9,955 bases of DNA. Source: a virus (lineage: Duplodnaviria; Heunggongvirae; Uroviricota; Caudoviricetes). Of the stretch, positions 1-9,955 are shown piece by piece. The stretch is taken from IMG/VR virus record IMGVR_UViG_2703718815_000001, positions 1-9,955 of that record. One strand, 5' to 3'. The position numbers were made by a program, and so were the translations under genes. The notes beneath the pieces are model-generated. The model saw only the letters and a program-made list of their open reading frames with translations, was not told where the DNA came from and ran no database searches. Every line of letters starts with the position of its first letter. Position 1 is the stretch's first letter.

Positions 1-27
1 CTTTCGGGTCGCCGGTTTTCAAGACCG
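1..27 (-). other. 3'-portion fragment of a tRNA-Ser(UGA)-like gene (anticodon stem-loop plus start of long variable arm), cut by the window edge; probable att core duplicate
   Basis: Reverse complement of 1-27 is CGGTCTTGAAAACCGGCGACCCGAAAG: a CGGT/ACCG stem around the 7-nt loop CUUGAAA (U33, anticodon UGA, A37), then GCGACCCGAAAG as in class II seryl-tRNA variable arms. This matches my recollection of E. coli serT. Positions 28-60 are A-rich and cannot form the D-arm or acceptor 5' half, so only the 3' part is present. Confidence 0.5.
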
Positions 28-168
28 AAGAAAAATAAAGAAAAATCAGTATAATACGCAAAATAGCCGAAAAGTTAATCAGACTTAACACCAAGAAAAA
101 TCAAGATGTTAGGGAGTTATTCAGAGTTAATATACCAGGTCTTTTTGCCAGAAAATTTTCTGGATTGT
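28..168. repeat. AT-rich att arm region with direct repeats AAGAAAAAT(A/C)A (28-38, 38-48, 93-103) and a 16-bp palindrome CCAGAAAATTTTCTGG (148-163) abutting the int stop codon
   Basis: Repeats and palindrome read directly from the sequence. The position, between the tRNA-like core and the 3' end of int, is where arm-type Int/IHF/Xis binding sites lie in lambdoid attP/attL. Function is inferred. Confidence 0.35.
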
Positions 169-1188
169 CTACTTACTGACCACAAGCGGCAAATCCAGTG
201 TTGGCGTGATTTTGGTTTTACGATCGTAAATCAACACCTGATTTTCTGTTTTGTGTCCACTGAAAATTTGTTTGTCGCGACTGCTGCCTTCATAATCTGA
301 AATTCCTTTGGCTTTTATGTCATGGAAGTTGCACCCAAACGGAACACCGGCTTTTTGCTCGGCTGCACGTTTAGCCTGATTCCACCAGTTGTTCAGCGTT
401 TTAGCTATGACCTTCCCGCCTTTGGTTGTGTTGATCACATACTCGCATGTGCCGGAAGATACATTTCGGGCTAACTGGATCGCCGTACGTAATCGTGGAG
501 ACCATTCCTTGATTTGTTTGGTGCCGGTCTTGTTTTGCTCAATGTAAATCCCTTTGTCCATAATATCCTCCCATTTCAGCTCGAGCACATCACCGAGCCT
601 TGCCGCACAGAGATAGGATATCTCCATTGCAATACGTAACTGTGGAATTGCTTCCGCATATATCGCAGCATACTGTTCATCGGTGATGTAAACAGTACGG
701 GCTTTAAGCGTGAATTTTCTGACTCCTTTGCATGGATTATTTTTCACATACCCACGCTCATATCCCCATCCGTATACGCGACTCAGACTTGCCAGTTCAT
801 GGTTTGCCTGGGTCTTGCTCTCAAGACCCCGCTTATCCATGAAAATTCTTACCTGCTCAATTTTTACATTATCAGCAAGCATTTTCCCGAATACCGCCAG
901 TAATGCCCTTTGATGTTGCCGATAATCTTTTTGGGTTCGGGGGGCCAGTTCTGTAAATGCAGGGGAGTCCATAAACATGTGCCATAATTTAGCTACGGTC
1001 ATTATGTCGTGGAGTTTTGCCTTTTCCAGTTCATAATTTTGCCAGACTTTAGCCACGCTGGTTTCCCGCACTCTTCCGAGCTTTATCGTTCTTGTGCTTC
1101 CTTTGGGTTTCCATACGTAACTGTAACCATTCGATCTAACGCGCGGTGGCAGTACATTATCTTTTTTGTCTTTTCTTGGTCTTCCCAT
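169..1188 (-). CDS. int: Tyrosine-type phage integrase (lambda Int family)
   Basis: 339-aa ORF. The central segment TDEQYAAIYAEA...LRIAMEISYLCAARLGDVLELKWEDI...YIEQNKTGTK parallels lambda Int (LTADEYLKIYQAA...LRLAMELAVVTGQRVGDLCEMKWSDI...YVEQSKTGVK). The C-terminal region has His and Tyr in the expected catalytic arrangement (FHDIKAKGISDY...SGHKTENQVLIYDRK). It lies next to xis and the att core. Confidence 0.9.
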   Translation of the reverse strand: MGRPRKDKKDNVLPPRVRSNGYSYVWKPKGSTRTIKLGRVRETSVAKVWQNYELEKAKLHDIMTVAKLWHMFMDSPAFTELAPRTQKDYRQHQRALLAVFGKMLADNVKIEQVRIFMDKRGLESKTQANHELASLSRVYGWGYERGYVKNNPCKGVRKFTLKARTVYITDEQYAAIYAEAIPQLRIAMEISYLCAARLGDVLELKWEDIMDKGIYIEQNKTGTKQIKEWSPRLRTAIQLARNVSSGTCEYVINTTKGGKVIAKTLNNWWNQAKRAAEQKAGVPFGCNFHDIKAKGISDYEGSSRDKQIFSGHKTENQVLIYDRKTKITPTLDLPLVVSK

Positions 1189-1408
1189 TATTCAGTGCCT
1201 CAAAATCGGGTTCAGCAGAAACCAGTTCAGATACTTTTGACATTGCTGTTAGTCCACGTGGAATATCACAGCGTAGAACTATCGGCTCGTTTTTAGGCCC
1301 GATTAAAAATGGGATGCCGTGCAGTCTTAACTGGTGTTGCTGTCTTGTGTATCGCTTGTATTTCGTGATCTCTTGAATCTCTGCTGGCGATAGAGTTAAT
1401 TCATACAT
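1157..1408 (-). CDS. xis: Excisionase-like small DNA-binding protein (Xis/YdaQ-like)
   Basis: 83-aa basic ORF directly upstream of int, overlapping its start by 32 nt (classic xis-int arrangement). AAGG lies about 12 nt upstream of the ATG at 1408. Family assignment (DUF1233-type excisionase) is recollection, not a search result. Confidence 0.65.
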   Translation of the reverse strand: MYELTLSPAEIQEITKYKRYTRQQHQLRLHGIPFLIGPKNEPIVLRCDIPRGLTAMSKVSELVSAEPDFEALNNGKTKKRQKR

Positions 1409-1433
1409 GTGGTCACGTGCCTTACAGCATGAC

Positions 1434-1460
1434 CGCCGCCAATATAATTCGGAGGCGGCG
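1434..1460 (-). promoter_or_regulatory. Hairpin (7-bp GC stem CGCCGCC/GGCGGCG, 13-nt loop) between the exonuclease stop and the xis start
   Basis: Inverted repeat 1434-1440 / 1454-1460 read from the sequence. No U-tract follows on the minus strand, so it is not a canonical intrinsic terminator; it may be an RNA-processing or retroregulation element. Confidence 0.25.
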
Positions 1461-1474
1461 ATCAGGGTTGAACA

Positions 1475-3955
1475 TTAAAAATCAGCCTGACTCGGGATCA
1501 GTTTTTGTATCGTAGCTGTAACGTATTTTGCCTGGTGACGGGCGTCATCCAGTGCATTGTGGCGCACGCCTTCGAATGGAATAACGGTTCTGGCATCAAA
1601 GTCGATTGTTTTTCCCAGCTCAACGATTGTGCGTACATCGCGATCGTTGTGGTAGCTCCACGGGCAGGGGATGTCCAGACGTTCGTATGAGGTGCGCAAA
1701 ATTGCGTTATCGAAAGTTGCACCATTACCCCATACCTGAACGAATTTTTCATCTGAGTATTCGTTGATGAACTCCCGAAACTGCGAAAGGGCATCCTTCA
1801 GTTTTACCTGGTCTGTTAAAATGGCAGCTCTGGCTTCACTGGACTGCTTCAGCCACCATTCGATGGTTCCACCGTCAGGAACAGCCCCTGTATTCATTGC
1901 GTCAGTCAGACTGATAACGATATAAAATACTGGCCCGATTTCCCCTGTTTGTGGGTCGAAGAAAACCGCACCAATAACCACGATGGGCGCATTGGTGTTG
2001 GTTCCCATTGTTTCAAGGTCGATCATCAGGTGGTACCACACTCTGCTGGTGGATGTGATAACGTGATGACCGTTCACCGCAATTAAGGGATCTGCCGTCT
2101 CGCCAGTTTCATTATCGCTGGCGTGGTCCTGAGCGCTGCCAGCATTCTCCTTGTGTGGATGTTCAGCGCCTTCCATTTCCTCCGGATCATTTTCCTGAAC
2201 TTCAACCTGATTCTCTTCATCGAATGTTTCCTGATATGTTGCGTCGCCCATCACCGCACCACAATCAGGGCAGTTGCCGCCACCGATCTGACCGCAGGCG
2301 GTGCAGACTTTTTCCGCTTCCTGTTGCGCTACCGGTTCGGATTGTTTCGTTTCTGGCTCGTTTTGTAACGCATTTTGGCTGTTTTGTTCCGCTTTCTGGT
2401 TGTTCTGTTCCGTTTCTTGCTGGTTCTGGTTCACAGAATCGCGGGTTTCAATCCCCTTCACCCATTTCGGATCATTCGGGTCGCTAATCCCTGCAACAAA
2501 TTCTCCGCGAGAGGCAGCAAGCAGTTCATTAGCGTCAGGCTGGCTGATATTGGCTGCCTGCATAATTTTGTTTACTTCGTCAGCGGTAACTTTTACCGGC
2601 TCTGGTTGTGCGGTCGTGTCAGATGCACCAGTATTTTGTTGTGAGCCTGAGTATGTACCGTTTTTGCGGGCAAAATATTCTTCTTTCGTGATTTCAGTAG
2701 CCCCTGCAGCCAGCGCCTTATTCAGACCAGAAAGTTTGTTTGCACGACCATATTTTTCGCCATCCTTATCGGTGAAAAGGAAGTAGAACGGCCCCTCACG
2801 CTCTACAGATGGTTCAGTTTCCAGCGTGTTTTCATTTTTTTGGGTATCAGATACTTCAGTTTCCACTGCATCAGTTTGTACTGCTGACGGCTGGAGAATA
2901 TCAGCAGTGTTCTGGTCTGTTTCTTCATCCTCAAACACGCCCTTTGTCGCCAGGTATTCAGTGATGTATTTGTTCAGTGCTACGGGATCTTTGTGAATGT
3001 CGATCGGACGCTCACGGACAAGGCCAAAAATAGTCTGACGGTCGTAGCGAACGGCATCGGGTTGTTTGCGCATAGATGCGGAAATGCGCTTCCAGTCTTC
3101 GCGATCTTTGTCGATAACTTCATTTTTTGCCCAGCGATGGATGCTGCCGTCAATGTTTCCGGCATTAATATCGCCAGGCCACAGAGCGTAGGCCAGTTCT
3201 TCATCCAGCGTTTTCCATGTCTGCTTGTATTCGCGATGAATGGCGGCAGTGGTGGGGTTGATTTTTCCTGCTGAGTTTTCAGTGTGCTGCCGGTTGACTC
3301 TGGCGCGGGCAAGATCAACAACAGACGTGTATTTCCCGGTTTCTTTGCGTTCGGTTTCGCGACGTTTTTTCCAGGTGCGTAATTCTGTCTGGATCTCAGG
3401 CCATTTTGCACCCGGCTTACATTTATGTTTAACCCACCCGATGGCGAGCAGCTTTAGTTCTGAATACATGACGTTAACTTCAGGCATTTTCATCAATGCC
3501 TCAACGATATGCCCGTCGAATGTTGCCATGTCCTCCTGCAACAATTCCTGTGCACTAATCACCATATCAACGGTGATGTTTTCACATGTACCGAACTTAA
3601 CCAGGACCGCGTTCTGTACTTCAAGGGACAGCTTGTCAAAATTGACGTTCATCGGATCGGATTCTGGTTCGACCGGGACAAAGGAAGCGCCTTCCTCATC
3701 CCAGCGGTTTTCCAGCATATATTCGGTATCCCAGGAGTCGATGGCAGGGCGGGGCATGCCGGGTTTATCCTCGCAGACAAGAAATTTATAAGCGCAGTCC
3801 TGAGCAGCCGGATATTGCTCCAGGAATTGCCAGGTAAATTTGGCACGGGCGCGACGTTCGTCGCCGGCTTCAATGGCAGTGGCTACAGCGACTGCACCTT
3901 CTTTCTTTATTGCCTGTTCGTCCGGAATGGCGGCGCAAATAAAGACTTTACTCAT
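1475..3955 (-). CDS. Large multidomain phage exonuclease (often annotated exodeoxyribonuclease VIII-like): N-terminal domain of unknown function, Q/N/E-rich linker, CxxC...CxxC zinc ribbon, C-terminal DEDDh (DnaQ-like) 3'-5' exonuclease domain
   Basis: 826-aa ORF with GAGG 9 nt upstream of the ATG at 3955. The C-terminal ~183 aa carry DEDDh motifs: MIDLET (Exo I), [12 protein letters not shown] (Exo II), [13 protein letters not shown] (Exo III). [16 protein letters not shown] is a 4-Cys ribbon (DNA about 2255-2305). A low-complexity [18 protein letters not shown] linker is encoded by tandem DNA repeats at about 2330-2420. The segment [29 protein letters not shown] resembles my memory of the RecE middle region; the N-terminus resembles what Qin ydfE encodes (recollection). 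Confidence 0.8.
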
Positions 3956-4035
3956 TTTGTTTTAACCTCATTACAGATTTAAGGGTGAACAAATCCCTGC
4001 CATTGCTGGCATATAAAAATGAAACCGGATATTAA

Positions 4036-4239
4036 TTACGGCGCTGTTTTAAGTCCTGCCGGGATTTCGTTATTATCCATGTGAATAACTTTATCGACCG
4101 GATAGCAGTTACCGGGAATTTTTTGTTCTGCTGCGGCAGCCATGCATTCTTTCATTGAACCGTAAATGTCAATAACCATGTCAACAGGCTCGCCAGTATT
4201 AAGGAAAACAGTCAGAGTGAGGGCAATAGCAGTATTCAT
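4036..4239 (-). CDS. Small membrane protein, YdfD-like (Qin prophage lysis-associated protein family), 67 aa
   Basis: Start chosen at the internal ATG 4239 (AAGGA 8 nt upstream), which overlaps the dicB-like stop as ATGA (translational coupling). N-terminal hydrophobic helix MNTAIALTLTVFL. Size and position match ydfD downstream of dicB in Qin. The track ORF 4036..4293 begins upstream, inside dicB. Confidence 0.6.
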   Translation of the reverse strand: MNTAIALTLTVFLNTGEPVDMVIDIYGSMKECMAAAAEQKIPGNCYPVDKVIHMDNNEIPAGLKTAP

Positions 4240-4424
4240 TGCCAGTATCCTTTTTGCATCGGGCGTAAACGTGCCAGCATTGAAAGAATGCATATTTTAT
4301 TTAATAGCTCCCGTTCGTGTTTTCTCTTATTAATGGCATCTTCAGTAAATGCAGGGTTACTGATTTTGACACCAATTTCAAAACAACCTTCAGACGTATT
4401 AACGTTTGGTAATAACGTTTCCAT
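4236..4424 (-). CDS. dicB: Cell-division inhibitor DicB homolog, 62 aa
   Basis: From the internal ATG at 4424 (GAGGA 7 nt upstream) the product is METLLPNVNTSEGCFEIGVKISNPAFTEDAINKRKHERELLNKICILSMLARLRPMQKGYWQ. This matches the length and, closely, the sequence of Qin DicB as I recall it. It follows a DicF-like element, as in Qin. Confidence 0.75.
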   Translation of the reverse strand: METLLPNVNTSEGCFEIGVKISNPAFTEDAINKRKHERELLNKICILSMLARLRPMQKGYWQ

Positions 4425-4607
4425 TATCGCGTCCTCAACAATGAATTTTGTGATACGGTGCCTGGTGCCTCCAGGTGACGTTAACCAGTTAACAATTAAC
4501 GCCGGATACAGAGAACCCACCCATAAGAACCAATACGGAAGTCAACTGGCCTTTTTAACTGTTCCGCGTGCGCTGAGCCGCATTCACCGCATCACAAAAT
4601 TCACTTT

Positions 4608-4670
4608 AAAAAGGGCGGGTATCACAAGGGAAAACAAAAAACGGATACCCGCCAAAAGGTAATCAACATG
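4608..4670 (-). ncRNA. dicF: DicF-family small RNA (divergent variant) with intrinsic terminator
   Basis: Minus strand reads ...UGUUGAUUACCUUUUGGCGGGUAUCCGUUUUUUGUUUUCCCUUGUGAUACCCGCCCUUUUUAAAGUGAAUUUUGUGAUG. It has a 10-bp stem (4614-4623 / 4644-4653) followed by a CUUUUU tract. It shares UUUGGCGG...UAUC.GUUUU...CCGCCCUUUUU with K-12 DicF (recollected 53-nt sequence), but the 5' dozen nucleotides differ. It sits between the ydfC-like and dicB-like genes as in Qin. The 5' end is estimated by alignment, not mapped. Confidence 0.55.
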
Positions 4671-4790
4671 GGTTGTTGCAGCGGGGTTGTCACTTAAGCG
4701 TATGGTCAACCTGACAACCCGGTGTCCTCAACGGGGAAGGAATAACCCCGCCATACTTACCGCCGCGCCATTTCGCGGAGTGCCACAACC

Positions 4791-4857
4791 GGAAGCGCAC
4801 AGACGAAGATGTCAGTGGTACACAACAAAGGGAGGAATGACTTCGCTGTGCGCTTCC
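4791..4857 (-). promoter_or_regulatory. Long near-perfect RNA hairpin (12 bp + 1-nt bulge + 5 bp stem, about 32-nt loop) in the untranslated leader upstream of the DicF-like RNA; candidate RNase III processing stem
   Basis: GGAAGCGCACAG-A-CGAAG (4791-4808) pairs with CTTCG-CTGTGCGCTTCC (4841-4857). It lies about 120 nt upstream of the inferred DicF-like 5' end. In K-12 the DicF precursor is cut by RNase III upstream of the mature RNA (established knowledge); the assignment here is inference. Confidence 0.3.
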
Positions 4858-4985
4858 GTGTTATGCCCTGACTTTTCAGGGATATATCCTTTCAGTAAAC
4901 TGCCAGTGCCGGATGCTCACCCGTGTCCGGCGCACGCACTCCACCTCACCCGTGGAGAACTCCTTAATTAACAACCCTCAGGAGG

Positions 4986-5216
4986 GTGATTTTGAACACA
5001 ATAAAAACCACTATTAATAATGATTTATCCCATGATGGAATAAATGCCGAATTAAGAGCCATTAAGCTCGCGATAGCTTTGATGGCAACAAGACTTCCGC
5101 CAGAACTTCGCTCAGATTGTGTAACAGATGCTTTAAAAAGCACAGGTGATAAACATGCCACTGAATTAGCAAACCTGATTCAACAATTCATAGATGAGGC
5201 GAATTCTCAAAACTGA
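4986..5216 (+). CDS. Hypothetical small protein (74-76 aa), AT-rich, opposite orientation to the surrounding operon; no family recognised
   Basis: Perfect AGGAGG at 4980-4985. Start is GTG 4986 (0-nt spacing) or, more plausibly, TTG 4992 (6-nt spacing); there is no in-frame ATG near the start. First codon positions are purine-rich and third positions A/T-rich, consistent with coding in an AT-rich acquired gene. Predicted helical and soluble. No obvious sigma70 promoter seen upstream. Confidence 0.4.
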   Translation: MILNTIKTTINNDLSHDGINAELRAIKLAIALMATRLPPELRSDCVTDALKSTGDKHATELANLIQQFIDEANSQN

Positions 5217-5367
5217 TTGTTATTTCTTTCTGAAAACTTTTACTATCCAGGCATTTTTTTGCTAACCAAATGCGGGCCTCTGTGCCTGCATTGGGCTCCA
5301 GTTCATGTAAGCGTTTTGCATCTTCCAGAAGCAAGGCAATAACGTGTTTAAGTTCTGTTTCATTCAT
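5188..5367 (-). CDS. Hypothetical small protein (59 aa; 63 aa if started at 5379); no family recognised
   Basis: ATG at 5367 with GAGG 6 nt upstream, 15 nt after the ydfC-like stop and co-oriented with the operon. The 3' end overlaps the plus-strand ORF by 29 bp (5188-5216). Product: MNETELKHVIALLLEDAKRLHELEPNAGTEARIWLAKKCLDSKSFQKEITISFENSPHL. Confidence 0.45.
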   Translation of the reverse strand: MNETELKHVIALLLEDAKRLHELEPNAGTEARIWLAKKCLDSKSFQKEITISFENSPHL

Positions 5368-5382
5368 CGTCAACCTCATCGG

Positions 5383-5598
5383 TCAGTAGTTTGCAATCAC
5401 TCGCGAAACGTTTAATGCCGCTCTTTTTGCCAGAGTGGTAATATCTTGCTCCGCTGATGCCAGTTCTTTAGAGAGGCGCTCTTTGTAGTCAGCAGCCTGC
5501 TTCATGTCATTAATGGCGCGTATCTTCCCGCACATCCATTCGTAAATTTCATCATCGGTATAGTCTGGCGCGATGATGACGGGTTCTCGTTTCTGCAT
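5383..5598 (-). CDS. YdfC-like small protein (71 aa) of the dicB-type operon
   Basis: GAGGAA 7 nt upstream of the ATG at 5598. Size (Qin YdfC is 72 aa) and position (third gene of the operon) match; sequence similarity is from memory only. Confidence 0.6.
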   Translation of the reverse strand: MQKREPVIIAPDYTDDEIYEWMCGKIRAINDMKQAADYKERLSKELASAEQDITTLAKRAALNVSRVIANY

Positions 5599-5628
5599 AC
5601 TGAATTCCTCGCGGTGCCGCTTCGCTTA

Positions 5629-5757
5629 TCAGCCGTTAGATTTTGCCGAACTGGAAAGCGCCTGTTTAAACTCACTGAAGCTGAGAGCTTCTTCGCCTTC
5701 GGCAAGGCCTTCGAAGTATTCTTCGTAAGCCTTTTCCATGATTGTGTCGAAATCCAT
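5629..5757 (-). CDS. YdfB/YdaG-like small acidic protein (42 aa); not in the supplied ORF track (below its length cutoff)
   Basis: Manual translation of the reverse complement: MDFDTIMEKAYEEYFEGLAEGEEALSFSEFKQALSSSAKSNG, with AGGTGAG just upstream of the ATG at 5757. It starts 1 nt after the ydfA-like stop. Size matches Qin YdfB (42 aa). Confidence 0.6.
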   Translation of the reverse strand: MDFDTIMEKAYEEYFEGLAEGEEALSFSEFKQALSSSAKSNG

Positions 5758-5758
5758 A

Positions 5759-5914
5759 TCACTCACCTGAGTTTCTTTCCAGCCAGCGACGAGCGCCAGT
5801 TTCGGTTTTAAACGTTTTGCTTTTGGTATACGTCATCGCGGTGAATGTGCCGTCCTGGTTGGGGAACACGCCACATACCAGAGATTCGCTGTTGCCAAGA
5901 TCGATAGTATCCAT
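5759..5914 (-). CDS. YdfA/YdaF-like small protein (51 aa), first gene of the leftward early operon
   Basis: Internal ATG at 5914 with GAGG 6 nt upstream gives MDTIDLGNSESLVCGVFPNQDGTFTAMTYTKSKTFKTETGARRWLERNSGE (51 aa, the size of Qin YdfA and Rac YdaF). An alternative upstream ATG at 5992 (77 aa) also has a GAGG and cannot be excluded. Confidence 0.6.
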   Translation of the reverse strand: MDTIDLGNSESLVCGVFPNQDGTFTAMTYTKSKTFKTETGARRWLERNSGE

Positions 5915-6092
5915 GTTGACCTCATTTCCCCTTAACGCCGGGGTAGCGGAACAAAAACCTGCTGCATAGTTAAAGTTGAACCCTGCCGTCATGTTCTTAC
6001 GCCTCGGGCTGGCTACTTAACCCCTGACCACTGCCTGGTAACTCGAAGTATTGCCCTGCATTCTGTGGGGCGGGGTGGGTTGGTATGAGAAA

Positions 6093-6134
6093 ACTATAGG
6101 TAATGCCTAATTGCTTGTCAATAGGCTATGCCTA
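6093..6134 (-). promoter_or_regulatory. Leftward early promoter (pL-like) with overlapping operators (OL)
   Basis: On the minus strand: -35 TTGACA (plus 6116-6121), 17-nt spacer, -10 TATAGT (plus 6093-6098). Operator palindromes TAGGT-AAT-GCCTA (6097-6109) and TAGGC-TAT-GCCTA (6122-6134) overlap the promoter. Confidence 0.5.
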
Positions 6135-6231
6135 ATGTTTTTTGCGCACAACCTAATAGGCGATGGTATGTGGAAGAGGTAATGGGAGCTAAATAACGGG
6201 ATCTAGGAGCTTCCCGTCGGACCATATAAGT

Positions 6232-6708
6232 TTAAGTTCCCGTTTTGGTGATGTTCTGGCTTTTCCGTTCTGATTCTTGATTTTTCAGATAGTTACTTAC
6301 CTTCATTTCCATTGCAGTAATGTAGGCGCGAACGTCATGATCAACCCAACCAGACTCCGCAGCATTTCCAGATAAGAGGAAAGCTACAATTGCTCTTTTT
6401 TCATCAGAAGCGGCTTGATAAAGGCTGTTTATGTCTAAAAGTTCTCTTTTTGAATCTGAGCAGGAAGGGGTTGGTATGGGGTATTCGTTAAGCCCCCAAT
6501 GCTCTGGACCAACCACATCAGAAAAGAAACGCCATAGTTCTGGAAGTTTATCTTTACTTATCGAACCTTTCTTAATCCAGTCATGGATTGATGGTGGTTG
6601 GACTTTGAAATGGCGTGCGATCTCCGCCTTTGATTTGACGGCTCCTGATGCAATTTTTTTATTAATGGCCTGCTCTATCGCTCGGCCTAAGTCTTTACCA
6701 CTAAGCAT
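6232..6708 (-). CDS. racR: Prophage repressor, cI-type HTH protein (RacR-like), 158 aa
   Basis: N-terminal HTH region (KSKAEIARHFKVQPPSIHDWIKKGS). It sits between two operator/promoter regions and is divergent from the Cro-like ydaS. Length is identical to Rac RacR (158 aa). Symbol is given on synteny and size; the sequence is not recalled residue by residue. Confidence 0.75.
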   Translation of the reverse strand: MLSGKDLGRAIEQAINKKIASGAVKSKAEIARHFKVQPPSIHDWIKKGSISKDKLPELWRFFSDVVGPEHWGLNEYPIPTPSCSDSKRELLDINSLYQAASDEKRAIVAFLLSGNAAESGWVDHDVRAYITAMEMKVSNYLKNQESERKSQNITKTGT

Positions 6709-6736
6709 TGCTTAATAGTCTCCTATGTGCATTGCA

Positions 6737-6805
6737 TTAGGCAATCCCTACCTATTGGTTGTTAGGCATAGCCTATTGACAATGATGTTAGGCGTCGCCT
6801 AATAT
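6737..6805 (+). promoter_or_regulatory. Rightward early promoter (pR-like) with three operators (OR)
   Basis: -35 TTGACA at 6776-6781, 18-nt spacer, -10 TAATAT at 6800-6805. Operators TAGGC-AAT-CCCTA (6737-6749), TAGGC-ATA-GCCTA (6763-6775) and TAGGC-GTC-GCCTA (6789-6801) have centres 26 bp apart. Confidence 0.55.
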
Positions 6806-6832
6806 CATTGTGTGTTTTTTGGAGTTCATTCG

Positions 6833-7156
6833 ATGAAAAAAGAGAACTATTCATTCAAACGAGCTTGTGCTGTTGTCGGTGGGCAATCAGCAATGGCCAG
6901 ACTTTTAGGGGTATCGCCTCCAAGCGTAAATCAATGGATCAAAGGTGTACGTCGGTTGCCTGCCGAGAGATGTCCAGCGATTGAACGAGCAACAAAAGGT
7001 GGAGTCCTGTGTGAAGAACTTCGTCCTGATGTTGACTGGTCATACTTACGACGTTCGTCATGTTATTCGCAGAATATGTCGATGAAGCAACCAAATGACA
7101 AAAACGATCATACCCGAAGTATCAAGAGGCAAATGATTCATGAAAATCAAGCATGA
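6833..7156 (+). CDS. ydaS: Cro-like HTH protein YdaS
   Basis: ATG at 6833 with GGAG 8 nt upstream. The track's GTG start at 6812 would sit inside the -10 region. MKKENYSFKRACAVVGGQSAMARLLGVSPPSVNQWIKGVRRLPAERCPAIERA closely matches Rac YdaS as I recall it. Confidence 0.75.
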   Translation: MKKENYSFKRACAVVGGQSAMARLLGVSPPSVNQWIKGVRRLPAERCPAIERATKGGVLCEELRPDVDWSYLRRSSCYSQNMSMKQPNDKNDHTRSIKRQMIHENQA

Positions 7157-7565
7157 ACACATCCGCATGGCGATGAATGCCTGGGCGCATCCGGACGGTG
7201 AAAAAGTTCCGGCAGCTGAAATAACCCGGGCTTATTTTGAGCTGGGTATGACGTTCCCGGAGCTATATGACGACAGCCATCCGGAAGCCCTGGCTCGCAA
7301 TACTCAGAAAATATTCCGCTGGGTGGAGAAAGACACCCCTGATGCTGTTGAAAAAATTCAGGCGTTGTTACCAGCGATCGAAAAAGCAATGCCACCTCTG
7401 CTGGTGGCCCGAATGCGCAGCCACAGTTCAGCCTATTTTCGGGAGCTGGTGGAGACGCGGGAACGACTGGTGAGAGACGCTGATGATTTTGTCGCAGTGG
7501 CGATCGCTGGTTTCAACCAGATGAATCGTGGTGGTCCGGCGGGAAATGCCGTGGTGATGCACTAA
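7140..7565 (+). CDS. ydaT: YdaT-family protein (141 aa), reported as toxic on overexpression and as a CII-like regulator
   Basis: Overlaps the ydaS 3' end; AAGAGG 10 nt upstream of the ATG. Size (Rac YdaT is 140 aa) and position (after ydaS, before the replication genes) match. Confidence 0.7.
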   Translation: MKIKHEHIRMAMNAWAHPDGEKVPAAEITRAYFELGMTFPELYDDSHPEALARNTQKIFRWVEKDTPDAVEKIQALLPAIEKAMPPLLVARMRSHSSAYFRELVETRERLVRDADDFVAVAIAGFNQMNRGGPAGNAVVMH

Positions 7566-7588
7566 AAGCACGGTGTTCGGAGTTTTTT

Positions 7589-8536
7589 ATGAGCAGCAAG
7601 CTTCATGGTCTTGTCTGGGAAGGGTGTGCCTTCACCGGCATGATCTTATCCAGGGTGGCAGTAATGGCTCGCCTTGCAGATTACAGCAATGACGAAGGTG
7701 TGTCATGGCCTGCAGTGGAGACCATTCGTCGTCAGATTGGGGCAAAGAGTGAATCAACGGTTAAAGCTGCGATAGCAGAACTGGAAAAGAACGGCTGGCT
7801 GACGAAGGAAGAACGTAAGGTCGGTGGGCGTAATGAAAGCAATATCTACCGTCTTAATGTGGAAAAACTCGAAGCAGCAGCAGCGGCGGCGCGTGAGGCA
7901 TATAAACCGAAAAGAAAAATTAACCCGGTAAAAAATGACCCGTCAAATATTGACCCCTCAACGGTTGACCCCTCAAATTTTGATGGATCAACCGTTGATA
8001 AAAAACATCCGGTTAGGGGGGCGATGGTTGGCCCCGATCCGTCAGTATTAAAACCTGATCCGTCAGATAAAAGATCTTTTCGTCCGGACGCTTCGCAACC
8101 GGACCCGCAGACGGCTGAACAGGATTTTTTAACCCGACACCCTGACGCGGTTGTGTTCAGTGCGAAAAAACGCCAGTGGGGCAGCCAGGAAGATTTGGCG
8201 TGTGCGCAGTGGATCTGGGGACGAATCGTGAGTCTTTACGAGCAGGCTGCCAGCGATGATGGCGAAATCATGCGACCGAAAGAACCAAACTGGACTGCAT
8301 GGGCCAATGATGTGCGCACAATGCGGATGCTGGATGGCAGAACTCACAGACAAATTTGCGAAATGTTTGGTCGGGCACAGCGGGATCCATTCTGGGTAAA
8401 AAACGTCATGAGCCCGTCAAAGCTTCGCGAAAAATGGGATGAGCTGGTTATTCGTCTGGGGCGTTCGCCTGTACAGCGTTGCGTGAATCATATTTCCGAG
8501 CCGGACGCCGAAATTCCGCCGGGATTCAGGGGGTAA
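7589..8536 (+). CDS. Replication initiation protein (lambda O-like / YdaU-like) with N-terminal HTH DNA-binding domain
   Basis: 315-aa ORF with GGAG 5 nt upstream. N-terminal winged-helix-like region. The central linker (NPVKNDPSNIDPSTVDPSNFDGSTVD) is encoded by iteron-like DNA repeats, as the lambda ori lies inside O. Immediately followed by the DnaC-like loader. Confidence 0.75.
   Translation: MSSKLHGLVWEGCAFTGMILSRVAVMARLADYSNDEGVSWPAVETIRRQIGAKSESTVKAAIAELEKNGWLTKEERKVGGRNESNIYRLNVEKLEAAAAAAREAYKPKRKINPVKNDPSNIDPSTVDPSNFDGSTVDKKHPVRGAMVGPDPSVLKPDPSDKRSFRPDASQPDPQTAEQDFLTRHPDAVVFSAKKRQWGSQEDLACAQWIWGRIVSLYEQAASDDGEIMRPKEPNWTAWANDVRTMRMLDGRTHRQICEMFGRAQRDPFWVKNVMSPSKLREKWDELVIRLGRSPVQRCVNHISEPDAEIPPGFRG
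7936..7991. repeat. Putative replication-origin iterons: four 11-bp units TGACCCGTCAA / TGACCCCTCAA / TGACCCCTCAA / TGATGGATCAA at an exact 15-bp period, followed by an A-rich tract
   Basis: Units start at 7936, 7951, 7966 and 7981, each with an internal TGA...TCA inverted symmetry. They are located inside the O-like gene linker. Origin function is inferred by analogy to ori-lambda. Confidence 0.5.
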
Positions 8537-8542
8537 CGAAGC

Positions 8543-9289
8543 ATGAAAAATATTGCGACAGGCGGTGTTCTTGAACGCATCCGTAAGCTGGCTCCGCAGC
8601 ATGTAACCGCGCCATACCGAACAGTGGACGAGTGGCGCGAGTGGCAACTTGCAGAAGGCCAGAAGCGTTGCGAGGAGATCAACCGCCAGAATCGTCAGTT
8701 GCGGGTGGAAAAAATTCTGAATCGCTCCGGCATCCAGCCGTTGCACCGCAAGTGCTCGTTTGCGAATTACCAGGTGCAGAATGACGGCCAGCGATACGCG
8801 TTGAGCCAGGCGAAATCCATCGCCGATGAACTGATGACCGGATGCACAAATTTCGCATTCAGCGGAAAACCTGGTACCGGAAAAAACCATCTGGCGGCGG
8901 CTATCGGGAATCGCCTGCTGAAAGATGGCCAGACAGTGATTGTGGTTACCGTGGCTGATGTCATGAGTGCTCTACACGCCAGCTATGACGACGGGCAATC
9001 AGGCGAAAAATTTTTGCGGGAACTGTGCGAAGTGGATCTGCTGGTTCTTGATGAAATTGGTATTCAGCGCGAGACGAAAAACGAGCAGGTGGTACTGCAC
9101 CAGATTGTTGATCGCCGGACAGCGTCGATGCGCAGCGTGGGGATGCTGACAAACCTGAACTATGAGGCCATGAAAACATTGCTCGGCGAGCGGATTATGG
9201 ATCGCATGACCATGAACGGCGGGCGCTGGGTGAATTTTAACTGGGAGAGCTGGCGCCCGAATGTTGGTCAGCCAGGTATTGAGAAGTAA
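8543..9289 (+). CDS. DnaC-like helicase loader / IstB-type AAA+ ATPase (YdaV-like replication protein)
   Basis: 248-aa ORF with Walker [16 protein letters not shown] and Walker [10 protein letters not shown]. It follows the O-like initiator; length matches Rac YdaV (248 aa). Confidence 0.9.
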
Positions 9290-9311
9290 TTTTTACCGGG
9301 AGGAAATTTTA

Positions 9312-9955
9312 ATGGAGACCGTTTTTGACGCACTGAAAGCGATGGGAAAAGCCACGTCGGTAGAACTGGCTGCGCGACTTGATATCAGTCGTGAAGAGGT
9401 ACTGAACGAGCTGTGGGAACTGAAAAAGGCTGGTTTCGTTGATAAAAGCGTATACACCTGGCGTGTAGCTGGTGAAGGTGAATCCGGGGTAGCCGAAGAG
9501 CAGCCAGCACAATCTGAAGTACAGGATGTGCTAACCAGGGAGGTCGAACGAAAAGTTACCGCTGACATGATGATTGAGTTTATCGGTCAGGAGGGAGCTA
9601 AAACGTGTGAGGAACTGGCGGGTAAGTTTGGTGTCAGCACTCGCAAGGTTGCTTCCACGCTGGCGGTAGTAACCGCAACGGGGCGGCTGGCACGCGTAAA
9701 CCAGAACGGTAAATTTCGCTACTGCATGCCGGGCGGTAATTTACCAGCAGAGCCGAAAGCTGCATTGGTAGCGGAAACTGATGGTAAAGCCTTTCCTCAG
9801 CCAGCAAGTGTTGCGTTACCAGTACAGGAAGCTGCAACACAGGAAGATATTAAAACAGAAACTGTGGCGGACATTGTGCAGCCGCTTGAGAAGCGAGTGG
9901 ATAATCTGGTTCTGCCATCGCTGCGACAGGCAAACCGCGAACTGCGTCGGGCGAA
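9312..9955 (+). CDS. Hypothetical phage protein, 3'-truncated by the window end; two tandem winged-helix-like repeats at the N-terminus
   Basis: ATG at 9312 with GGGAGG 8 nt upstream; open frame to the window end (not in the track because it is incomplete). Internal duplication: [33 protein letters not shown] versus [39 protein letters not shown]. Confidence 0.6.

Follow-up and report, generated by a model that had tools for sequence, protein, structure and literature searches.

Operators and a predicted leftward promoter beside the racR repressor gene of a Rac-type prophage

A repressor gene located between two divergent sets of early genes raises the question of whether its product acts on one early promoter or on two. 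The question is posed here by racR, the gene for a 158-residue repressor, in a 9955-base-pair (bp) stretch of DNA (IMG/VR record IMGVR_UViG_2703718815_000001, positions 1 to 9,955; hereafter the window). The window belongs to a Rac-type lambdoid prophage and is 100% identical to the prophage integrated beside yccA in Escherichia coli ETEC1746. The segment around racR reads as a bipartite immunity control region. The Rac immunity type is already known, and the right operator (OR), the rightward promoter pR, and the fold of RacR have been published for E. coli K-12 and are rediscovered here in a close relative. Only two parts are modestly new: a previously undescribed left operator (OL) with a leftward promoter (pL), and an operator cassette in common with S24-type repressors. 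The probability that OL and pL constitute a functional promoter-operator controlled by RacR is estimated at about 0.85.

Operator clusters and early promoters around racR

The 21-nucleotide (nt) sequence TTAGGCATAGCCTATTGACAA occurs in exactly two copies in the window, which form an inverted pair, one on the plus strand at 6762-6782 and the other on the minus strand at 6115-6135. The pair had been noticed in a preliminary description of this DNA; the copies are exact and the right one lies where it was reported, but the left one has to be moved by one position from 6116-6136. In 200 dinucleotide-preserving shuffles, nothing matched the 21-mer even when three mismatches were allowed. The pattern TAGGC-N3-GCCTA, with at most one mismatch, is found at five sites against 0.09 expected, and no shuffle reached five. 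The sites form two clusters, two on the left and three on the right, which flank the repressor gene. A sixth site, with two mismatches, covers the racR start codon, and the same site has been published as a RacR operator in K-12.

In the left cluster, OL1 (TAGGTAATGCCTA, 6097-6109, one mismatch) and OL2 (TAGGCTATGCCTA, 6122-6134, perfect) are spaced 25 bp from center to center. OL1 is positioned within the spacer of pL and overlaps its -10 element by 2 nt. The half-sites of OL1 have an entropy of 0.11 bits, and the site has the same position in K-12 and in loci from Yersinia, Klebsiella, Pectobacterium, and Providencia. OL2 adjoins the -35 element of pL. On the right, OR4 (TAAGCATTGCTTA, 6702-6714; the published 'O3' or fourth inverted repeat, PMC9638921) lies over the racR ATG at 6706-6708 and is unchanged in 57 OR variants. 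It is followed by OR3 (TAGGCAATCCCTA, 6738-6750, one mismatch), OR2 (TAGGCATAGCCTA, 6763-6775, perfect), which adjoins the -35 element of pR, and OR1 (TAGGCGTCGCCTA, 6789-6801, perfect), which is located within the pR spacer with a 2-nt overlap with the -10 element. The center-to-center distances in the order OR4-OR3-OR2-OR1 are 36, 25, and 26 bp. The spacing of 25-26 bp claimed earlier for the additional operators holds for the left pair and for the two right-hand intervals between OR3 and OR1.

A sigma-70 promoter scan covered positions 5700-7200, with candidates scored as matches out of 12. The two best matches are pL (11/12) and pR (10/12), and both overlap the operator clusters. On the minus strand, pL has a perfect -35 element TTGACA at 6116-6121 and, after a 17-bp spacer, the -10 element TATAGT at 6093-6098, which is invariant in 36 unique OL variants. 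On the plus strand, pR (PydaST) has the elements TTGACA at 6776-6781 and TAATAT at 6800-6805, separated by 18 bp; the PydaST promoter of K-12, which is very strong and has the form TTGACA-18-TAATAT (PMC11879457), is thus matched at 6776-6805. The two promoters share a plan in which a perfect operator abuts TTGACA and a second operator, 6 or 7 nt further, ends on the first two bases of the -10 element, and the two modules align across ~46 bp. The identical operator fused to a perfect TTGACA, which had been proposed for both early promoters, is present at each of them. The repressor gene is flanked by outward early promoters, each overlapped by at least two operators of one consensus. Given this common plan, repressor dimers on each operator pair would cover the -35 flank as well as the spacer and the -10 element.

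The right-hand sites correspond to the footprinted RacR operators of K-12 (PMC9638921, PMC5700373). Three palindromes are present between racR and ydaS of K-12, and RacR forms three complexes with this DNA in electrophoretic mobility shift assays (PMC5700373). DNase I footprints of RacR gave the monomer motif ATTAGGC and the consensus T/ATAGGC-n3-GCCTAT/A, with one operator over the racR ATG (PMC9638921). The racR-ydaS intergenic sites of the window, including the one over the ATG, fit this consensus. Four inverted repeats, and a RacR octamer in size exclusion chromatography, have also been reported for K-12 (PMC11014345). The three complexes and the octamer agree with the multi-site binding that the preliminary description expected of the repressor.

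The repeats could instead serve chiefly as operators of Cro-like YdaS or of cII-like YdaT, both of which bind the racR-ydaS intergenic region in K-12 and in prophage CP-933P (PMC11879457, PMC8630535), and YdaS-family cro genes accompany these operators in all loci examined. However, it is on the ATTAGGC half-sites that the K-12 RacR footprint falls (PMC9638921). The repeat recognized by YdaT is a different one, TTGATT-N6-AATCAA (PMC9986795), and is located here at 7133-7150, whereas the YdaT footprint over pR contains no distinguishable palindrome or evident motif (PMC11879457). The use of the same sites by repressor and Cro is the norm in lambda, which makes an addition to RacR likelier than an alternative to it. 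Operators mainly for YdaS or YdaT are therefore very unlikely, and RacR is retained as the protein that would bind the repeats.

In K-12, the two copies of the 21-mer differ in the central triplet, ATA in one and ACA in the other. The center of OR2 is ATA here and ACA in K-12, so the repeat is exact over 21 of 21 positions in the window but not in K-12. Among 110 related loci, the combination ATA/ATA occurs in 68 and ATA/ACA in 23. These comparisons indicate that the exact identity of the copies is not the functional unit, and that the conserved part is TTAGGC-N3-GCCTA-TTGACA.

Two palindromes at the operators were flagged by the scan as intrinsic terminators but rejected as conserved ones. 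The stem of the OL2 palindrome is 5 bp and its T-run is not conserved across loci, and the long palindrome at OR1 is absent from K-12. The latter is a 33-bp near-perfect palindrome (16-nt arms, 94%) at 6779-6811, which reaches from the pR -35 element to about +1 and is perfect in some related loci, in ATGAT/ATCAT or ATAAT/ATTAT versions. On the left, the box ACCTAATAGG at 6151-6160 is invariant in 36 unique OL variants, although its flanks vary. It consists of two outward-facing half-site-like elements, 21-35 bp past OL2, and may be an atypical third element of OL or the site of another protein.

Conservation of the left module and proposed control of the leftward genes

Public collections were scanned with the pattern TTAGGC-N3-GCCTATTGACAA, which was found in 13 stretches from species-representative genomes and on at least 119 contigs of viruses or prophages. 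In most of these it is present as two inverted copies with a RacR gene between them, at a distance of 644-647 bp. The preliminary description had suggested the 21-mer as a marker of an immunity group in other prophages; inverted pairs do recur around RacR, but it is the shorter conserved part, not the full 21-mer, that marks them. The 112 loci with a full-length RacR contain 37 unique OL and 58 unique OR sequences, and, with one divergent locus left out, 36 and 57 variants, respectively, were used to compute the entropies. The mean entropy of OL columns is 0.05 bits in half-sites and 0.48 bits in linkers (Mann-Whitney p = 6e-4), and that of OR columns 0.03 and 0.56 bits (p = 1e-7), p-values that are indicative only, because the sequences are phylogenetically related and one site per locus (OL2 or OR2) was picked by the pattern. 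The hexamers of both promoters are nearly invariant, whereas the 3-nt operator centers are free to vary. OL1, OR1, OR3, and OR4, which lie outside the search pattern, are equally conserved.

As a control for this bias, loci were fetched by the repressor protein alone, which gave repressors from Yersinia (59% identity), Klebsiella (57%), and Providencia, and a relative from Pectobacterium. Each of these loci has three OR sites; the first lies over the ATG, the second 35 bp further on, and the third another 25 bp past the second. Downstream of the repressor gene, they contain the module [TAGGC-N3-GCCTA]-TTGACx-6 nt-[TAGGC-N3-(G/A)CCTA], which in two of the loci comes after one or two cargo genes. 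The distance between OL and OR ranges from 0.64 to 2.2 kb among loci, with the sites retained. These comparisons indicate that the left module is a conserved, selected part of the system.

Between one and three unrelated cargo genes separate the repressor gene from OL in several relatives (L085:7981-8937; L136:4137-5291; L137:4208-4940), for example a gene for a 384-residue HSDR_N-domain protein in Klebsiella and three small open reading frames in L085. The cargo has the position of rexAB in lambda, and the window has no cargo there.

An exact inverted pair around a single gene could also delimit a mobile or recombining immunity cassette, composed of racR and its flanks, in which the repeats have no operator role. 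Lambdoid phages are known to exchange immunity regions. However, each repeat belongs to a series of like palindromes with regular spacing of 25-26 bp and is placed exactly on a near-consensus promoter. The repeat centers vary freely among loci, no transposase or recombinase is encoded between the repeats, and they are found 0.64 to 2.2 kb apart with unrelated cargo inside. A mobile cassette is hence scarcely credible as an explanation of the repeats, and the left copy is better read as part of OL.

A further indication of a promoter on the left comes from expression data on K-12. The leftward genes ydaG, ydaF, kilR, ydaE, racC, and beyond increase 40-100-fold upon depletion of RacR (PMC6765115; preprint 10.64898/2026.09.06.749655). 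In C-protein experiments, leftward genes rise 40-70-fold while racR mRNA falls (PMC6765115), a change that is not explicable by read-through from the racR promoter. The published transcriptomes fit a separate, RacR-repressed leftward promoter pL. No description of RacR operators, or of a promoter, downstream of racR was found in the literature, and neither were genome-wide RacR binding data; in the main papers on RacR, ydaG, ydaF, and looping go unmentioned in this context.

The predicted leader of the pL transcript comprises ~170 nt (5915-6086, minus strand). It is nearly identical to that of K-12 Rac despite the different first downstream gene, which is ydaF-like here and ydaG in K-12. Toward the 5' end the leader is rich in C and poor in G, by eye very much so in the first ~25 nt, and its predicted fold is not better than that of shuffled sequences (z = +1.42), which gives no sign of a structured RNA. 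The leader resembles a Rho loading site, and a role in loading Rho is conceivable. The C-rich leader may relate to the published Rho silencing of Rac kil (PMC4150792). A small hairpin, ACGGGA...TCCCGT, is located at 6196-6217 directly past the racR stop codon and has the compensatory form ACGGAA...TTCCGT in K-12-type loci; the fold of the region downstream of racR that contains it is no better than that of shuffles (z = +0.49).

These features of the leader bear on the possibility that the left cluster has no function and is left over from recombination or gene conversion across racR, and that the leftward genes are reached by read-through from the racR promoter and silenced by Rho. A Rho terminator in racR, 'trac', has been reported to silence kil (PMC4150792), no published demonstration of pL was found, and the C-rich, unstructured leader is like Rho loading sites. 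A relic is nevertheless difficult to reconcile with the invariance or near-invariance of the -35 and -10 elements and of both OL half-site pairs in 36 unique variants in which the neighboring bases vary. Nor does it account for the retention of the module in other genera, even with cargo genes between it and the repressor. The rise of leftward genes with falling racR mRNA (PMC6765115) is the opposite of what read-through predicts, and Rho attenuation and a repressed pL can coexist. A relic with silencing by Rho only is unlikely, and a functional pL under RacR is preferred.

In the proposed mechanism, RacR dimers would recognize the 13-bp sequence TAGGC-N3-GCCTA through an N-terminal, lambda-cI-like helix-turn-helix. 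RacR on OR1 and OR2 would keep RNA polymerase off pR, which serves ydaS (cro), ydaT (cII), and the replication genes, and RacR on OL1 and OL2 would keep it off pL, which serves the genes from DUF1391 to dicB, exo, xis, and int. Autoregulation would come from OR3 and OR4, two sites in overlap with the promoters and start codon of racR. The spacing of 25-26 bp, about that of lambda, and the octameric state of RacR make pairwise cooperative binding likely. For a loop of ~640-690 bp between OL and OR, proposed by analogy, the chances are about even.

Several points weigh against this interpretation of OL and pL, in addition to the qualification of the p-values given above. The K-12 binding data cover OR only, and we infer RacR binding at OL, the activity of pL, looping, and the route of induction; no direct binding or transcription-start data for OL and pL were found, either for this prophage or for K-12. 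The published model, in which kil is silenced because Rho terminates transcripts that read through from the racR promoter, does not invoke pL (PMC4150792). OL has only two clear sites, whereas lambda has three. RacR does not act alone on these sequences, since the OR region of K-12 is bound by YdaS (Cro) and YdaT as well. Looping is pure analogy.

If RacR operators are located on a near-consensus leftward promoter, they provide a direct explanation for the 40-100-fold leftward derepression in K-12 transcriptomes, and in OL the octamer reported for RacR would have a natural second partner on the DNA. OL and pL also qualify the view that Rho termination of read-through silences kil. Rac-type immunity regions are common and govern toxic or otherwise consequential genes, such as those for division inhibitors of the kilR/dicB type, recombinases of the recET type, xis and int, and YdaS and YdaT. 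The practical gain is modest and consists of a defined OL fragment and a typing signature, TTAGGC-N3-GCCTA-TTGACA in inverted pairs.

The repressor, its induction, and its S24-bearing relatives

The repressor is encoded on the minus strand at 6232-6708 and is 89% identical to K-12 RacR. It scores 241.7 bits against a cutoff of 200 for the NCBIfam RacR equivalog NF049929, in line with its initial description as a 158-residue RacR-like protein. The AlphaFold2 model (predicted local distance difference test score 82) contains five N-terminal helices (residues 4-71) that form the helix-turn-helix domain, a disordered linker (80-90), and a C-terminal domain of three helices. A Pfam search with the repressor found no domain and no S24, and a sequence search of the PDB found no relative. 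In Foldseek searches, the N-terminal domain gave only weak matches to XRE, HipB, and lambda cI, whereas the C-terminal domain was without any match, and there was no structural match to S24. K-12 RacR has likewise been described as having an N-terminal domain with a lambda CI-like fold and an unrelated C-terminal domain (PMC11014345).

The all-alpha C-terminal domain of the model and the lack of a Pfam hit uphold the earlier statement that no peptidase domain is evident. By these results, RacR does not have the S24 domain, Ser-Lys dyad, and Ala-Gly cleavage site that characterize self-cleaving repressors of the LexA/lambda-CI type, and without the S24 fold RecA-stimulated self-cleavage is unavailable for derepression. 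The caution expressed at the outset, that induction may not proceed by RecA-mediated autocleavage, also agrees with the literature. RacR has been described as unresponsive to SOS (PMC10448788) and has been grouped with the Gifsy-type short repressors as a candidate for control by an antirepressor (Lemire et al., PMC3121763), and PaaR2, which is without a peptidase motif, does not respond to mitomycin C (PMC8630535). Derepression would instead proceed by an antirepressor, proteolysis, dilution, or competition. Neither the window nor a 19.3-kb stretch of the identical genome contains a LexA box (CTGT-N8-ACAG), and no antirepressor gene is annotated or recognizable in ~19 kb of the ETEC1746 locus examined. 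In a search of a phage collection, RacR was carried solely by in-silico prophage records.

The N-terminal ~73 residues of RacR, with the presumed recognition helix PPSIHDWIKKGSISKDKLPELW among them, show almost no variation in any of the homologues found. Covariation of operator and recognition helix can be sought in a single divergent case, a 46%-identical homologue on a contig that ends before OL (L139). This homologue has the altered recognition helix PPSVHGWIDKGAISKSKLPELW and OR half-sites of the TAGC type instead of TAGGC (L139:3430-3510), and it is possible that its specificity is altered.

The N-terminal domain of RacR, ~77% identical over residues 1-77, is also found fused to Peptidase_S24 (PF00717) in repressors of 235-362 residues. 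Such fusions are the Pectobacterium protein P0100 (L137:3501-4208), which is among proteins of 226-256 residues, an Achromobacter repressor of 362 residues (L004:3060-4148), and a repressor of 350 residues on an IMG/VR contig (L058:2243-3295). The S24-bearing loci retain TAGGC-N3-GCCTA operators at both OL and OR. The same operators are thus combined with different C-termini, which indicates that the operator set goes with the DNA-binding domain rather than with the C-terminal one. A single DNA specificity appears to be common to SOS-cleavable and SOS-blind repressors, and such sharing between RacR and S24 repressors was not found in the RacR literature.

The cassette can be defined as two OL sites on pL together with OR sites, three to four in number, at pR and at the start of the repressor gene, and it occurs with the helical, SOS-blind C-terminus of RacR or with the self-cleaving Peptidase_S24 of Pectobacterium and Achromobacter. 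The RacR DNA-binding domain and its operators may constitute a portable unit, common to repressors with unrelated C-termini. Prophages with opposite modes of induction would then belong to one DNA-level immunity group, with possible cross-repression, and in the RacR type the octamer would bridge OL and OR over only ~0.65 kb. This proposal, taken as a whole, is held to be plausible and doubtful in equal measure.

Genetic setting and comparison with known switches

The gene order of the prophage is int-xis-exo...DUF1391 leftward from pL, racR, and ydaS(cro)-ydaT(cII)-O-dnaC rightward from pR. The minus strand encodes integrase, a DUF4224 protein, a large exonuclease, DUF1482, dicB, small open reading frames, and a DUF1391 protein, followed by the repressor, and the plus strand encodes YdaS/Cro-like, YdaT/cII-like, O-like, and DnaC-like proteins. 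The first gene of the pL operon, DUF1391/YdaF-like, is located at 5759-5914 on the minus strand (Pfam PF07151, E 3e-27). The Prokaryotic Genome Annotation Pipeline (PGAP) calls it in the identical ETEC1746 locus as a protein of 51 residues, and a longer open reading frame of 77 residues extends to 5992. The divergent ydaS and ydaT adjoin racR in the K-12 gene order. On the plus strand, the ydaS-like cro gene at 6833-7156 encodes 107 residues (Pfam YdaS_toxin, E 1e-29; P22_Cro, E 1.5e-8), and the ydaT-like cII analogue at 7140-7565 encodes 141 residues (Pfam YdaT_toxin, E 7e-10).

The inverted repeat ATGATTCATGAAAATCAA at 7133-7150, which resembles the YdaT-box with one mismatch to its consensus, lies over the ydaT start codon. 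Its count alone is not significant; its position is that of the repeat in K-12 and CP-933P (PMC11879457, PMC9986795). In K-12, a reverse promoter has been described within ydaS, alongside the YdaT-box over the ydaT start (PMC11879457). The promoter-like sequence TTGTCA-17-CATATT within ydaS (7073-7101, minus strand, 9/12) is a candidate counterpart, by analogy, of the published PracR4, an analogue of pRE (PMC11879457). An Rfam scan of the whole window (E <= 1) gave no match within 5900-6900. It did give a sub-threshold match to the small RNA STnc100 at 4392-4615 on the minus strand (34.1 bits against a gathering score of 47, E 1.6e-4), which overlaps the dicB-like gene at its 5' end and the stretch just upstream.

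Of 5426 complete E. coli genomes, 4206 match the 1.3-kb query region at least in part, and 1085 contain 80% or more of it. The preliminary description took the segment to define the immunity specificity of this prophage. It does lie between the divergent early promoters of a lambdoid prophage, but, with 1085 of 5426 genomes, it is of the common Rac type and not specific to this prophage.

The closest known system is Rac of K-12, which shares the OR operators, pR, the OL sequence, and the YdaT-box over the ydaT start, together with the 89% identical RacR. The two differ in the inter-operator linkers, as well as in the center of OR2. In addition, the first pL gene is DUF1391/ydaF-like here and ydaG in K-12, sieB is absent here, and the prophage is integrated beside yccA and not in ttcA, and looks more complete. 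The repressors GfoR, GtgR, and DicA are similarly short, with ~150 residues and without a self-cleavage domain, and RacR has been listed among them (PMC3121763). They are controlled by antirepressors, whereas the ~19 kb examined here contain neither an antirepressor gene nor a LexA box.

In lambda, as here, the repressor gene is located between divergent pL and pR, each with several palindromic operators at center spacings of 23-26 bp, and the promoter-proximal operator pair spans the -35 and -10 elements. An octameric repressor, a leaderless repressor mRNA, and a cII analogue that acts on a reverse promoter inside cro are also shared (PMC9638921, PMC11014345, PMC11879457). However, the operators are 13 bp long here and 17 bp in lambda, and there are two clear OL sites here against three in lambda, and four inverted repeats at OR. 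The distance between OL and OR is ~0.65 kb instead of 2.3 kb. The C-terminus of RacR is a three-helix bundle and not an S24 peptidase, so that there would be no RecA-mediated cleavage, and YdaS is reported not to repress racR (PMC9638921).

Prophage CP-933P of E. coli O157:H7, with PaaR2, YdaS, and YdaT, differs in its operators, which are 18-bp palindromes of the GTTTAGTAA type, in its immunity specificity, and in the presence of a toxin-antitoxin pair downstream of its repressor. The similarities are a short octameric repressor that lacks a peptidase motif and is unresponsive to mitomycin C, and a leftward promoter, PL933P, which matches PR exactly in its -35 and -10 elements. Similar operators are positioned at both promoters of CP-933P, and its OL1-3 have been described and tested (PMC8630535). 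The concept of a left operator is therefore not new.

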